A DNA stretch of 64,000 nt from Gammaproteobacteria bacterium (GTDB lineage: Bacteria; Pseudomonadota; Gammaproteobacteria; JAURND01), in contig DASZWJ010000019.1 in NCBI GenBank assembly GCA_035546635.1, positions 37,386-101,385 of the forward strand. The letters are read 5' to 3'. Of this stretch, positions 27,333 to 35,649 are shown in pieces. A program made the translations under genes and the position numbers. The notes under the pieces are model-generated. The model was given only the letters and a program-made list of their open reading frames with translations, was not told the DNA's origin and searched no databases. Position 1 is the stretch's first letter. Each line of letters opens with the position of its first letter.

Positions 27333-28283
27333 ATGATATCCAAAATCGAAAAAACATTTCCGCTAGTGATTATTGTTGTGTCTGCACTGGCTATCTTTTC
27401 TCCCGAATTATTTCTTTGGATAAAACCCCATATCCCCATGTTTTTAGGCATAGTCATGTTCTCAATAGGCTTAACTCTGGAAACAGGTGATTTTGTTAAG
27501 GTGTTTAGTCTACGCTGGCAAATCGCAGCATTAGCAATACTTAAATATCTTATCATGCCGATTTTAGCTTATCTTATTGCCGTAGTATTTGGTCTATCGC
27601 AAACGGATTTTATGGGTTTGATAATCATTAGCGCTTGTCCTGGCGGCACTGCTGCGGCTGTCATGTCTTATTTATCCAAATCAAATGTTGTGTTGACTGT
27701 GGTACTCACATTGTTAACAACCTTATTGTCTCCCATTGTCACACCTATCATTATTTATGTATTTTTGCATAAATATGTACCCATCCCATTAACACAGATT
27801 GCCAGCACGATATTTTGGATTGTCTTATTTCCGTTATTTGACGGCTTAGTTTTAAGAAGATTATTGGGTAAAAAAGTCGAGGCGATCAAACCGGTTTTGC
27901 CTTTGGTATCCATGACAGCGATAACCTTATTGATCGCGTGTATAGTAGCAATGAATCACCAAAACATCCTGGCTTTACCATTTCTGGCAGGATTTGCCGT
28001 TCTAACAGACAATCTTTTGGGATTGACTATTGGTTACAGCATTGCCAAAAAACTCTTTGGTTTTAATGCTAAAAATTGCCGTTCAGTGGCCTTTGAATTT
28101 GGTATTTTGGATACAGGCATGGCGGTAGTCTTGGCAACTAAATTTTTTGGAGTTGCCACAGCACTTTGTGGTGCCTTGTTCAGTGCAATTCAGAATGTGA
28201 CTGGCGCGTGTTTGGTCAGAGTATTGCAAAGTGATAGCCAGCATCTAAATATACGGAGGAAAGATCATGAGGCAACTCAATAA
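27333..28283 (+). CDS. bile acid:sodium symporter (BASS/SBF) family transporter
   Basis: 316 aa with ~9-10 TM segments and the BASS fold ([14 protein letters not shown]). It overlaps the ilvD start by 17 nt. Confidence 0.7.
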
Positions 28284-29949
28284 ATATAGCGCGCATATTA
28301 CCCAACCCCGTTCGCAGGGTGCATCGCAAGCGATGTTATACGCAACTGGTTTGACGGAAACTGATCTGAATAAACCTCAAGTTGGCATAGCCAGCATGTG
28401 GTATGAAGGCAACCCCTGCAATATGCACCTGCAGGATTTAGCCAATATTGTCAAACAAGGGGTACAGGCAGCGGATATGGTGGGTATGCGTTTTAATACC
28501 ATTGGTGTGAGCGATGGTATCTCCATGGGTACGGAAGGCATGCGTTTTTCACTGCAATCACGTGATCTCATTGCTGATTCAATTGAAACGGTAATGAGTG
28601 CGCAGTGGTATGATGGATTGATTACCTTGCCAGGCTGTGACAAAAACATGCCGGGTTGTTTGATTGCTATGGGACGTTTAAACCGTCCGAGTCTGATGAT
28701 ATATGGCGGTACTATTAAAGCAGGTAAATTGGGTAAAGAATCACTGGATATTGTTTCTGCCTTTCAATGTTATGGTGAATATTTAAGTGGCAGAATCGAT
28801 GATAATCAGCGTAAAGCCATTATTCAACACGCTTGCCCAGGTGCTGGTGCCTGTGGCGGAATGTATACCGCGAATACCATGGCTTGCGCCATTGAAGCCT
28901 TAGGAATGAGTCTACCTTACAGCTCCTCTATGCCGGCCATCTCCGCCGAAAAACATCAGGAATGTCTGACAGCAGGTGCCGCAATGCGTTTACTGCTAGA
29001 ACGTGATATCAAACCGCGAGATATCATGACACGTAAAGCGTTTGAAAATGCTGTGGTATTAGTGATTGCTCTGGGCGGTTCCACCAATGCCGTTTTACAC
29101 TTGATTGCAATGGCGCGCACCGTCGATGTGTCGCTAACGTTGGATGATTTTCAGACCATCAGTGCACGTACCCCGCTGTTGGCGGATTTTAAACCCAGTG
29201 GTCATTTTGAAATGGAAGATTTGCACCAATATGGCGGTACTCCGGCGGTGATGAAAATGCTGCTGGAAGCGGGATACTTACATGGTGATTGTTTAACGGT
29301 GACGGGTAAAACCCTGGCTGAAAATTTAGCATCACTACCTGGGTTATCTAAAGGACAGCCAATTATTCACTCGTTAGATCACCCGCTGAAATCAACGGGA
29401 CATTTGAGAATTTTATATGGCAATCTTGCAGAAAAAGGCGCTGTGGCTAAAATTACCGGTAAGGAAGGATTACGTTTCAGCGGCCCCGCCCGAGTATTTG
29501 ACTCAGAAGATGATATGGTTCATGCTCTTGAAGAAAAAAAGATTAATAAAGGCGATGTGGTGGTCATCCGTTACTGTGGTCCTAAAGGCGGTCCTGGTAT
29601 GCCAGAAATGTTGAAGCCTACTTCGGCGATTATGGGGGCAGGTTTAGGCAAAGATGTGGCCTTGATTACAGATGGTCGTTTTTCCGGTGGTTCGCACGGA
29701 TTTATTGTTGGCCATATCTGTCCTGAAGCTCAGGTAGGCGGTGTGATTGCCCTGATTCAAGAGGGCGATCGTATTGAAATTGACGCTGAAAATAATACCT
29801 TAACCGTGGATGTGAGTGAGGCGGAATTAAATGCACGGCGTGCCAAGTGGGTGATGCCGTCTTATAAAGTGACGCAGGGCACTTTGTATAAATATATTAA
29901 GAATGTTGCATCAGCCCAATTAGGCTGTGTCACTGATGAAAATGTATAG
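28267..29949 (+). CDS. ilvD: dihydroxy-acid dehydratase
   Basis: IlvD/EDD motifs ([33 protein letters not shown]). Confidence 0.95.
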
Positions 29950-29958
29950 GAGAAATGC

Positions 29959-33782: not shown

Positions 33783-34891
33783 TGAAAAAATTATTGATAA
33801 ACATTCCTGCAGCTGCCACGCATAGCTATCCTATTCTGATTAATTCAGGCTTGCTTGAACAGCCGGAGGCTTTTTTGCCGGAAAACAGAAATTTCGGCAA
33901 TCTAGTTTTGGTCACTGATAATACCGTGAAAAAATTATATGCTGAGCGTTTTGCCGAGAAACTTATTGGATTGGGGTATAAAGTGACTTTATTGGCATTT
34001 CCTGCAGGCGAGCAGCATAAAAATTATCAGACCAAGCAACATTTAGAAACACGCATGTTACGCCATCGTTTCGGAAGAGATAGTTTATGTTTGGCGCTGG
34101 GGGGCGGGGTAGTAGGCGATCTCACCGGGTTTGCCGCAAGTACTTATATGCGCGGAATTCCTTACGTACAAATTCCTACCACATTGTTAGCAATGGTCGA
34201 TAGCAGCGTTGGGGGAAAAACTGGCATAGATACTCCACAGGGTAAAAATTTGATTGGTGCCTTTTGGCAGCCGCAGGCAGTTGTTGCGGATATTAACTGT
34301 TTAAAGACTTTGCCGAAAAAACATCTGATTAACGGCTTAATAGAGGCATTAAAAATGTTTTTGACCAGTGATGCTGAAAGTCTGGTTTATGCGCAAGCGA
34401 AACTTGATAAGATATTGGCAGGAGATGAAACAGTTTTAAAAAATCTGATTTATCGTGCAGTGAAAGTTAAAGCCGATGTGGTAGCCAAAGATGAAAAAGA
34501 AAATAATTTGCGCATGATTTTAAATTTCGGGCATACGATCGGTCATGCAGTAGAAACTTTAAGTCAATATAAAATTTTACATGGTTATGCGGTGGCTTTG
34601 GGAATATTGGTTGAAGCAAAAATAGCGCAATTGTTGGGTCTTTTGGATTTTGACAAATATTTATTGATTTATAATTTGTTTACTGGTTTAGGTATTGTGA
34701 CATCTGGCTTAAAAAAATATACGATTAATCATATTATCAATGCCACAAAGTTAGATAAAAAAGTCAGAAATGGTGCGGTGAATTATGTTTTACTACGCGA
34801 TATCGGCCAGGTCTATGAAAATAAAAAAGCCTTCGCCCATCCTGTCGAGGATGACATTGTAGTAAGGGCATTGATTGAAGTGATGCAATGA
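33779..34891 (+). CDS. aroB: 3-dehydroquinate synthase
   Basis: LALGGGVVGDLTGFAASTYMRGIPYVQIPTTLLAMVDSSVGGKTGID. Confidence 0.95.
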   Translation: MMKKLLINIPAAATHSYPILINSGLLEQPEAFLPENRNFGNLVLVTDNTVKKLYAERFAEKLIGLGYKVTLLAFPAGEQHKNYQTKQHLETRMLRHRFGRDSLCLALGGGVVGDLTGFAASTYMRGIPYVQIPTTLLAMVDSSVGGKTGIDTPQGKNLIGAFWQPQAVVADINCLKTLPKKHLINGLIEALKMFLTSDAESLVYAQAKLDKILAGDETVLKNLIYRAVKVKADVVAKDEKENNLRMILNFGHTIGHAVETLSQYKILHGYAVALGILVEAKIAQLLGLLDFDKYLLIYNLFTGLGIVTSGLKKYTINHIINATKLDKKVRNGAVNYVLLRDIGQVYENKKAFAHPVEDDIVVRALIEVMQ

Positions 34892-35649
34892 TTCGGGCAT
34901 TGTTATTGATTTTCATGGGTATATTTTCCGTTGGTGCAAATGGTGTGGGCATGAATTACGCAAATAATATAAAAATAGGAATTACCGGAGATTATCCCCC
35001 ATTGACTGCTTTTGATGAAAATACAGGGGAATATCAAGGGTTTGATATTGATATGGCGCATAATCTTGGGAAATTTCTGCACAAAAAAATTATCTTTGTT
35101 AAGACAACCTGGCCTAGTTTAGGAGAGGATTTACAAGCGCATCAATTTGATATTGCTATGGGTGGGATTGCAATAACTAAAGAACGTGCACAACAATTTA
35201 TTTTCTCTAAGCCGGTACTGGTGGATGAAAAAGTGGCGGTTTTTAATTGTGAGAATCAATCAAAGTATCAATCACTAAGTGATATCGATCAGCCCCATGT
35301 AAAAGTAATTGAAAATCCAGGCGGCACGAATGAGCGTTTTGCGCGCCAACAACTACCAAAAGCTGATATCAGGATTTTTGCTGATAATACAACTATATTT
35401 TCCCAGTTATTAAATCATCAAGCTGATGTGATGATTACTGATGCAATTGAAGCAGGTTATCAGCAGAAGCTGCATCCAGAATTATGTGTGCTACATTTTC
35501 CGCACGAAACTGAGCAGGAGCGTAAGGCGTATATGTTGCGGCCAGAGGATCAACAGTTATTGGCTGAGGTGAATGCTTGGATAAACCAGATAGAAGCTAA
35601 TCGAGTGTTGGATGAAATCAAGAGTAAGTGGTTGTGGTTGTCATCCTGA
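34888..35649 (+). CDS. periplasmic SBP_bac_3-family protein, possible cyclohexadienyl/arogenate dehydratase (PheC-like)
   Basis: Signal peptide (LLLIFMGIFSVGANG) followed by a type-3 solute-binding fold. It is ATGA-coupled to aroB inside the aromatic cluster. Confidence 0.55.
   Translation: MIRALLLIFMGIFSVGANGVGMNYANNIKIGITGDYPPLTAFDENTGEYQGFDIDMAHNLGKFLHKKIIFVKTTWPSLGEDLQAHQFDIAMGGIAITKERAQQFIFSKPVLVDEKVAVFNCENQSKYQSLSDIDQPHVKVIENPGGTNERFARQQLPKADIRIFADNTTIFSQLLNHQADVMITDAIEAGYQQKLHPELCVLHFPHETEQERKAYMLRPEDQQLLAEVNAWINQIEANRVLDEIKSKWLWLSS

Follow-up and report, generated by a model that had tools for sequence, protein, structure and literature searches.

The ilvGMEDA and ilvBN operons of enterobacteria are controlled by leader-peptide attenuators. 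Mergers of operons into supraoperons are well described, as in the case of the trp operon that was inserted into the aro operon of Bacillus subtilis (PMC1173090). Here we analyzed a 64,000-nucleotide (nt) stretch of gammaproteobacterial DNA (from contig DASZWJ010000019.1 of assembly GCA_035546635.1; referred to here as the window), in which 16 genes for branched-chain (Ile/Val) and then aromatic amino acid biosynthesis lie contiguous and co-directional over ∼17 kb (22222-39188), all of them on the + strand and with no antisense gene, as determined by open reading frame (ORF) listing and family scans. With a rough probability of 55%, we favor the view that two older operons merged recently, and specifically in this lineage, to give the ilv-aro cluster, in which ilv transcription probably reads through into the aro genes and aroA is translated independently. 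As a bare gene order the finding is only moderately surprising; attenuation at an ilv leader is textbook knowledge. A literature search, limited in scope, returned no description of an ilv-aro supraoperon or of a branched-chain/aromatic merger.

Like the B. subtilis aro-trp-his-tyr supraoperon, the window has one amino acid operon that was inserted into, or came to adjoin, another in a narrow clade, with the upstream regulatory leader kept (PMC1173090). In B. subtilis, however, all parts belong to aromatic or histidine synthesis and co-transcription was shown experimentally, whereas the window joins branched-chain and aromatic genes whose co-transcription is predicted. The cluster also resembles the serC-pheA-hisH-tyrA-aroF-cmk-rpsA array, where co-directional genes of mixed pathways have often been shuffled by insertions and fusions (PMC1173090). 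That array is nevertheless conserved across bacterial classes, while the ilv-aro joint was seen in two sampled genomes only and with unconserved spacing.

The joint itself differs from what had been described by a first, sequence-only reading of the window, according to which a start/stop overlap couples ilvE to aroA. This overlap (GTGA) needs GTG 30858 as the aroA start, which would add 13 residues absent from all homologs, and it appeared because the longest ORF was taken. N-terminal alignment instead places the start of aroA (EPSP synthase, TIGR01356; 30897-32201, +) at GTG 30897 (VNLIVHKT), ten homologs beginning with MNLIV.KT. The Logan gene call also puts the start at 30897, and the NCBI product (HVV68247.1, 430 amino acids [aa]) begins later still, at 30909. 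With the ilvE stop at 30859-30861, sequence reading thus leaves a spacer of 35 nt (30862-30896, +) between the two genes. A Shine-Dalgarno-like AGGA lies in this spacer, 11 nt before the GTG, and aroA therefore has its own initiation signal. The proposed translational coupling of the ilv block to the aro block was accordingly abandoned: as read from the DNA, aroA translation is initiated independently of ilvE.

At the level of transcription, the check for a terminator between ilvE and aroA gave the result that a continuous message would predict, since no terminator-like site was found in the 3' end of ilvE or in the spacer. A consensus scan of the + strand from 30140 to 30897 likewise found no promoter-like site, and the predicted folding of the RNA of 30800-30960 is no more stable than that of shuffled sequence (z -0.32).

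The upstream end of the cluster carries a predicted leader-peptide transcription attenuator, which is conserved in related operons. Sequence reading and an ORF scan identified a leader ORF of 31 codons (22039-22134, +; MSSYKNIAIRIFNLIIVVILSREVRGCVLKR, then a stop), in which 13 of the 31 residues are Ile, Leu or Val (6 Ile, 3 Leu and 4 Val), the run LIIVVIL included. In the predicted folding of the attenuator RNA (22105-22190, +), the 3' part of the leader ORF (22105-22115) pairs with 22155-22165 to form an antiterminator (-29.4 kcal/mol), and a terminator hairpin at 22150-22181 (-24.1 kcal/mol) is followed by a T9 run. These two pairings are mutually exclusive, the antiterminator overlaps the leader ORF, and an additional upstream 1:2 pairing completes the classical four-segment attenuator design; the complete leader folding has a z of -3.4. 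Ile/Leu/Val-rich leader ORFs and terminators were also observed 5' of ilvB in three Legionellales contigs (L098, L099 and L100), the leader peptides of this set being MFKINNIVTHSNIIIAIIIGHEMRGYVFE, MKNISQNLVNPIIELVVIISALWASGR and MFRNIVAQLINNLFVVVIIITSRCGPMS, each ending in a stop. Attenuator control, suspected earlier for the entire region, is thus upheld for its ilv part by the Ile/Leu/Val-rich ORF, the exclusive hairpins and the conservation in these relatives. The design is that of enterobacterial ilvGMEDA and ilvBN, with a short Ile/Leu/Val-rich leader ORF, an exclusive antiterminator and terminator and a U-run before the first ilv gene. Unlike those systems, the window leader is without sequence homology or an Rfam match, and the cargo 3' of it may include nine aromatic-pathway genes. 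An Rfam scan of 20.9-41 kb returned a tRNA-Val and spurious microRNA-model matches on two long hairpin elements of the cluster, and no known leader or riboswitch family.

We next compared the locus with its relatives. The nearest of these, L094, is an ENA contig of 208 kb, and its proteins share 60-89% identity with those of the window (73-74% for AroA, by two alignments). Its ilv part reads ilvB-ilvN-ilvC-(acetolactate decarboxylase)-fusion-BASS-ilvD-ilvE, where the fusion is a threonine synthase-like protein described below and BASS a transporter gene, and its aro part reads aroA-aroK-DAHPS-aroB-CDT-aroC-tyrA-CM-AT (DAHPS, DAHP synthase; CDT, cyclohexadienyl dehydratase; CM, chorismate mutase; AT, aminotransferase). 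In L094, ilvE and aroA are separated by an aldo-keto reductase gene and by a gap of 422 nt with repeats resembling miniature inverted-repeat transposable elements (MITEs). The synteny comparison therefore sustained only part of the proposed supra-operon organization: the ilv-then-aro order is common to the window and L094, but the tight joint is not conserved, and the other sampled relatives are without the arrangement. An assembly artefact was considered and rejected, as the junction recurs in a Logan assembly contig (L001) and the same gene order in L094, which comes from an independent sample.

Elsewhere the two halves stand apart. The ilvB-ilvN-ilvC-fusion operon stops at ilvD in L098, L099 and L100, and ilvE is solitary in Legionella genomes or, in L005, follows ilvD without aro genes. 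A stand-alone aro block with aroA first was observed in about ten loci of metagenomic or genomic origin (L082, L085-L088, L093, L096, L097 and L102), typically in the order aroA-aroK-(aroQ-aroE)-DAHPS-aroB-aroC-PDT-tyrA-CM-(aroD/E), PDT being a PheA-type prephenate dehydratase. Among relatives the place 5' of aroA is taken by a divergent murB, by a GNAT gene, by trpBA, or by a transketolase gene overlapping aroA, and the aro block is thus a mobile module docking behind different genes. A conserved operator or TyrR-box-like motif was sought 5' of aroA across 10 loci, and none was common to them, the upstream regions being non-homologous. Two of the stand-alone loci have a Phe/Tyr/Trp-rich leader ORF ahead of aroA (L088 9848-9898, MNIHTQAFYFFYWKTF; L086 3478-3537, MGNKQFTAYFYGFWFNPTR; both ending in a stop), followed by a terminator made up of hairpin and U-run; L093 presents a weaker case. 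We consider the L088 and L086 leaders candidate aromatic leader-peptide attenuators of stand-alone shikimate operons. The ilvE-aroA spacer of the window has no room for a comparable aromatic leader. Compared with relatives, the window/L094 lineage has CDT in place of the PheA-type dehydratase, has gained the aminotransferase gene, and has a cluster without aroQ and aroE; a search of the window for aroQ, aroE, PDT, trpA and trpB found none of them.

The spacer of the window is weakly similar to the last ∼35 nt 5' of aroA in L094, consistent with either deletion from the window or insertion into L094. A MITE terminus left in the spacer as a deletion footprint was also considered. The 12-mer GCTGTCATTATC matches the MITE terminal inverted repeat (TIR) with two mismatches, a similarity that may be due to chance, and this candidate was not retained. 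The sole identical copy of the 12-mer lies at 3643, within a hydrolase gene; a match to the TIR in the aroC-tyrA spacer, with one mismatch, is more convincing than that in the ilvE-aroA spacer.

In the reading that we favor, two ancestral operons would have been placed head to tail within one Legionellales lineage. The upstream unit would have consisted of the attenuator and ilvB-ilvN-ilvC-fusion-ilvD, extended in this lineage by the BASS transporter gene and ilvE, and the downstream unit would have been a near-complete aromatic operon of the type that starts with aroA in relatives. Shrinkage of the ilvE-aroA interval would have left 35 nt in the window, and we infer that an ancestral aro leader was lost in this lineage. 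Because the remaining spacer is too short for the promoter and leader seen before stand-alone aroA, transcription from the ilv promoter past the Ile/Leu/Val-sensing attenuator would most probably read into aroA-aroK-aroG-aroB-CDT, and might, with less certainty, go on across the MITE hairpin into aroC-tyrA-CM-AT. Aromatic mRNA levels would then be tied to branched-chain supply, with pathway-specific control exerted through enzyme-level feedback.

Alternatively, two or more independent transcription units might simply abut, with aro promoters inside ilvE, within or behind the MITE, or ahead of tyrA. The short spacer would then have arisen neutrally, through deletion in a genome that is streamlining. 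We regard this as a real possibility, although not a probable one. In relatives aroA usually heads its own unit, and several further observations weigh against a merged transcript. The distance between the blocks in L094 is 1.3 kb, and this stretch contains MITEs as well as a hairpin and T-run ∼45 nt before aroA; selection for one transcript is for this reason not evident. Promoter-like hexamers, each matching at 10/12 positions, occur within ilvE (TTGAAA-16-TATTAT, 30112-30139) and before tyrA (TTGATG-16-TATAAT, 36925-36952). The 229-nt hairpin (35654-35882) divides CDT from aroC, and both this and the second long perfect hairpin of the cluster (24203-24298) could terminate transcription or suffer RNase III cleavage and so split the message; neither is followed by a U-run. 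Aromatic leader peptides occur in only two, possibly three, stand-alone loci, so that an ancestral aro attenuator is hypothetical, and co-transcription is predicted from spacing and the absence of signals. The consensus promoter scan, finally, ran at chance level (58 matches versus 51 expected from shuffles). This last result bears on both sides: promoter-like matches that are no commoner than in shuffled sequence argue against reading the two hexamer pairs as promoters, and for the same reason a weak internal promoter is beyond the power of the scan to exclude. Against independent units stand also the lack of any promoter-like match within 750 nt 5' of aroA, the lack of a terminator 3' of ilvE, and the absence from the window of the leader and promoter regions of stand-alone aroA.

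A stronger version of the merger is regulatory capture, in which the aro operon lost its promoter and aromatic leader and is expressed only by read-through from the Ile/Leu/Val-gated ilv promoter. We put this forward tentatively and consider it rather doubtful. If true, branched-chain starvation would switch nine shikimate/Phe/Tyr genes and, in a host-associated bacterium that has few regulators, would serve as a single proxy for amino acid supply. Dependence of the aro genes on the ilv attenuator would make the locus a clear natural case of one amino acid pathway taking over the regulatory input of another by operon merger. The relatives preserve its intermediate stages, from separate operons, through neighboring operons held apart by a spacer gene and MITEs, to operons compacted to a 35-nt spacer, and such a series should be useful for studying operon growth and regulatory simplification in host-associated bacteria.

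The sequence-only reading had further suggested that IlvE, placed at the junction, may serve both pathways. As an explanation of the gene order, this would mean an adaptive linkage in which IlvE, co-expressed with both pathways, carries out the final transamination not only for Ile/Leu/Val but also for Phe (and Tyr). E. coli IlvE does transaminate phenylalanine/phenylpyruvate, and tyrB aspC ilvE mutants are Phe/Tyr auxotrophs (PMC9309667). A second type of locus points in the same direction. In six loci (labeled Bdellovibrionota, Bdellovibrionales or Deltaproteobacteria, one of them only Proteobacteria), ilvE is followed after 18-85 nt by a gene for a 693-aa CM-PDT-ACT-DAHPS protein, an unusual four-domain PheA-AroG fusion, and then, where the contig reaches, by aroB and aroA. 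The arrangement leuC-leuD-leuB-ilvE-(CM-PDT-ACT-DAHPS)-aroB-aroA is seen at L010 6860-15405, with junctions of 14, 18 and 7 nt and an 8-nt overlap; related loci are L011, L018, L021, L023, L024 and L025. leuCDB lies directly 5' of ilvE in L010 and L011 and also 5' of it in L025, where no aro match appeared. The proteins of these loci are 43-68% identical to each other, and the arrangement is thus maintained there.

The leuCDB-ilvE-aro cluster of these metagenome-assembled genomes is an independent linkage of branched-chain and aromatic synthesis through ilvE, so that the theme recurs. As in the window, ilvE stands at the branched-chain/aromatic boundary of a tightly packed, co-directional cluster; unlike the window, the cluster has leu rather than ilv genes and a four-domain fusion protein, belongs to another phylum, and shows no separate aminotransferase. 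On comparative grounds, it gives some support to a link between ilvE and phenylalanine synthesis. The aro block of the window, however, ends with its own class I-beta aminotransferase gene, which overlaps the chorismate mutase gene, and IlvE therefore need not serve the aromatic branch. Moreover, ilvE is parted from aroA in L094 by the aldo-keto reductase gene and 422 nt, the stand-alone aro blocks of relatives are without ilvE, and Legionella genomes carry ilvE alone. While it is possible that IlvE serves both pathways, we thus consider it improbable that such sharing explains the linkage.

All junctions were recomputed, and gene starts were checked against the N termini of orthologs in L094. 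NCBIfam/Pfam and PDB searches bore out every gene identity that had been named from the sequence; the NCBI protein records for the region are HVV68243-HVV68251. The ilv part (all +) begins with ilvB, the acetolactate synthase large subunit gene (22222-23919; TIGR00118, 722 bits), whose product has 565 aa, equal to that of L094. Its start is ATG 22222, preceded by an AAGGTGG motif; ATG 22174 was rejected as a start, as it sits within the terminator. There follow ilvN, for a short, 85-aa ACT-domain small subunit (23933-24190; 88% identity to the L094 ortholog), ilvC, for ketol-acid reductoisomerase (24347-25417; TIGR00465, 335 bits), the fusion gene, and a gene for a BASS/PanS-like transporter (27333-28283; family scan). 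This transporter gene, which lies between the fusion gene and ilvD, was found at this place only in the window and L094, and its product could carry 2-oxo acids or pantoate-pathway intermediates. Next come ilvD, for dihydroxy-acid dehydratase (28267-29949; NF002068, 824 bits), and, as the last ilv gene, ilvE, for a branched-chain aminotransferase (29959-30861; NF005146, 381 bits) with its nearest homologs in Legionellales. The BASS/ilvD overlap that had been noted is real (17 nt, 23 nt in L094), and a 9-nt gap separates ilvD from ilvE.

Behind aroA lie, again all on the + strand, aroK, for shikimate kinase (32188-32739; family scan), the gene for a type I-alpha DAHP synthase (32739-33782; NF009395, 358 bits), and aroB, for 3-dehydroquinate synthase (33782-34891; TIGR01357). 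The overlaps listed within this block hold: 14 nt for aroA/aroK (17 nt in L094), 1 nt (TAATG) for aroK/DAHP synthase, and 1 nt (TGATG) for DAHP synthase/aroB, the last with ATG 33782 as the aroB start. This start agrees with the N terminus of L094 AroB; TTG 33779 was without support and was discarded. After CDT and the MITE follow aroC, for chorismate synthase (35907-36989; TIGR00033, 478 bits), tyrA, for a short prephenate/arogenate dehydrogenase (37026-37766; Pfam PDH_N and TYRAAT1_C, PDB 5t9f) that is closest to plant-type enzymes, a gene for an 87-aa AroQ-class chorismate mutase (37753-38016; family scan), and a gene for a class I-beta aspartate/prephenate-type aminotransferase (38013-39188; PDB 1j32 at 3e-74, 6f77, and 5wmh at 6e-58, the last being the Arabidopsis prephenate aminotransferase). 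Here, too, the reported overlaps proved correct, with 14 nt for tyrA/chorismate mutase and 4 nt (ATGA) for chorismate mutase/aminotransferase, both identical in L094. On these gene starts, true stop/start overlaps, and hence possible coupling, are confined to within each block. With the two inserted hairpin elements subtracted, no intergenic gap in the cluster exceeds 71 nt. Overlaps are commonplace in this genome, 4 of the 21 other same-strand neighbor pairs in the window overlapping by 1-8 nt, and their number in the cluster is no higher than expected for operons.

The gene following aroB (34888-35649, +), described earlier as PheC-like, encodes a protein of the family-3 solute-binding fold that matches the cyclohexadienyl (prephenate/arogenate) dehydratases AncCDT-5 (1.6e-66) and PaCDT (7e-56) in the PDB. 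In the ungapped HMMER alignment to these two proteins, it keeps Glu173, Asp21, Asn152, Trp60, Lys100, Asn128, Thr132 and Asn133, residues which are catalytic or binding, with Glu173 as the general acid and Asp21 and Asn152 as its supporting network (10.1101/157495). Judged by these matches and residues, the gene product is a genuine CDT. The ATGA overlap (4 nt) reported for aroB/CDT holds with ATG 34888 as the start and disappears with ATG 34951, which leaves a 59-nt gap. The upstream start adds the signal peptide-like sequence MIRALLLIFMGIFSVGANGVG; the NCBI record (HVV68251.1, 232 aa) and the L094 ortholog both start at the internal Met corresponding to 34951. In L094 the frame 5' of CDT is degenerate, with a signal peptide remnant at 13951-14040, whereas it is intact in the window (34888-34950).

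The window CDT thus resembles Pseudomonas aeruginosa PheC (PaCDT), both in its match and in the residues named for this enzyme (10.1101/157495). P. aeruginosa PheC, however, is periplasmic and encoded outside a biosynthetic operon, whereas the window gene lies inside the aro operon, at the place of the PheA-type dehydratase of relatives, and its signal peptide, optional in the window, has been lost in L094. The CDT of this lineage may be a periplasmic enzyme that is being drawn into cytoplasmic use as a substitute for the PheA-type prephenate dehydratase of relatives.

The fusion gene (25489-27285, +) encodes a 598-aa protein in which a ThrC-like pyridoxal phosphate (PLP) domain is joined to a LeuA allosteric (LeuA_dimer) domain (Pfam PALP and LeuA_dimer), and its nearest solved structures are threonine synthases. 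It holds the position expected for ilvA, which is not present in the window, and every related ilv operon examined has it between ilvC and ilvD (the window, L094 at 3227-5026, and L098, L099 and L100 at 10001-11800). The ilvC-to-fusion junction measures 1 to 71 nt in four of these five loci; in L094 the acetolactate decarboxylase gene lies in between. More than 120 clusters of the fusion were found in Legionellales, Fangia, Cysteiniphilum, Facilibium and other taxa, and those bearing any functional name are all annotated solely as "threonine synthase."

Comparison of the window protein and 12 family members with four solved threonine synthases showed that the PLP-binding lysine motif GSFKDRG is present and Arg160 retained, while other invariants of threonine synthase are changed (STGNT to STGNM, NSvNPxR to GDYA[YF]R, and GNAGN to GCGTN). 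In all 13 fusion members, Thr88, Asn154, Ser155 and Asn188 (Thermus thermophilus numbering) are replaced by Met, Gly, Asp and Cys, respectively. We take these four residues to bind the substrate or product phosphate that enforces threonine formation over 2-oxobutanoate release. A canonical thrA (aspartokinase-homoserine dehydrogenase)-thrB-thrC operon is located at 52115-56823 (+), ∼13 kb downstream of the cluster, and the organism therefore carries threonine operon genes separately. It is a reasonable hypothesis that the fusion may be an ilv-dedicated, 2-oxobutanoate-forming enzyme under feedback control via its LeuA-type domain, a precedent being a cyanobacterial ThrC with threonine deaminase activity (PMC12172450). 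A literature search on LeuA_dimer-threonine synthase fusions and on Legionellales amino acid biosynthesis found nothing relevant, and the fusion may be the most novel element in the region.

The larger hairpin element, which occupies most of the 257-nt CDT-aroC gap (35654-35882, strand not assigned), had been called a MITE, and this description stood: its 229 nt fold into a near-perfect hairpin (-127 kcal/mol, z -11.8) with terminal inverted repeats of the sequence CTGTCATCCT. The motif at its termini, GCTGTCATCCTS, is overrepresented in the window (14 matches versus 5.2 expected), and the last codons and stop of CDT (35637-35649) resemble a TIR copy. The MITE-like palindromic element in the ilvN-ilvC gap (24203-24298, strand not assigned; -76.6 kcal/mol, z -8.0) recurs in part at 41231-41273 (repeat family D5). 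Several MITE-like palindrome families, with termini TGTCATCCTGAGCG, TGTCATTCCCGC or CGTCGTCCCGGC, populate the intergenic DNA of the window, with further elements at 16509-16570, 21930-21965, 41164-41319, 43618-43747 and 60355-60416.

By its sequence relationships, the host of the window is an uncultured Legionellales-like gammaproteobacterium; the best relatives of its IlvE are from a gammaproteobacterial metagenome-assembled genome (72% identity), Legionella saoudiensis (69%) and L. jamestowniensis (66%). Cultured Legionella show auxotrophy for branched-chain amino acids. The cluster indicates that some uncultured Legionellales retain Ile/Val synthesis genes together with most steps of aromatic amino acid synthesis. 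A 1172-aa ankyrin repeat protein is encoded at 10785-14303 (-); proteins of this kind are typical among the eukaryote-like effector candidates of Legionellales and would suit a host-associated lifestyle. Just 3' of the aminotransferase gene we observed a Cys-rich 89-aa ORF (39276-39545, +) without a family match, the same position in L094 being taken by an unrelated 62-aa protein of the Coxiella/Legionella family CBU_0585/lpg0581 (PF28076); a tRNA-Val(GAC) gene follows the Cys-rich ORF at 39852-39926 (+). Further downstream, two tandem paralogous nucleotidyltransferase-HEPN genes (41815-42702 and 43810-44691, -) with 87-90% DNA identity (repeat families D1 and D2) probably represent a duplicated toxin-antitoxin-like module.

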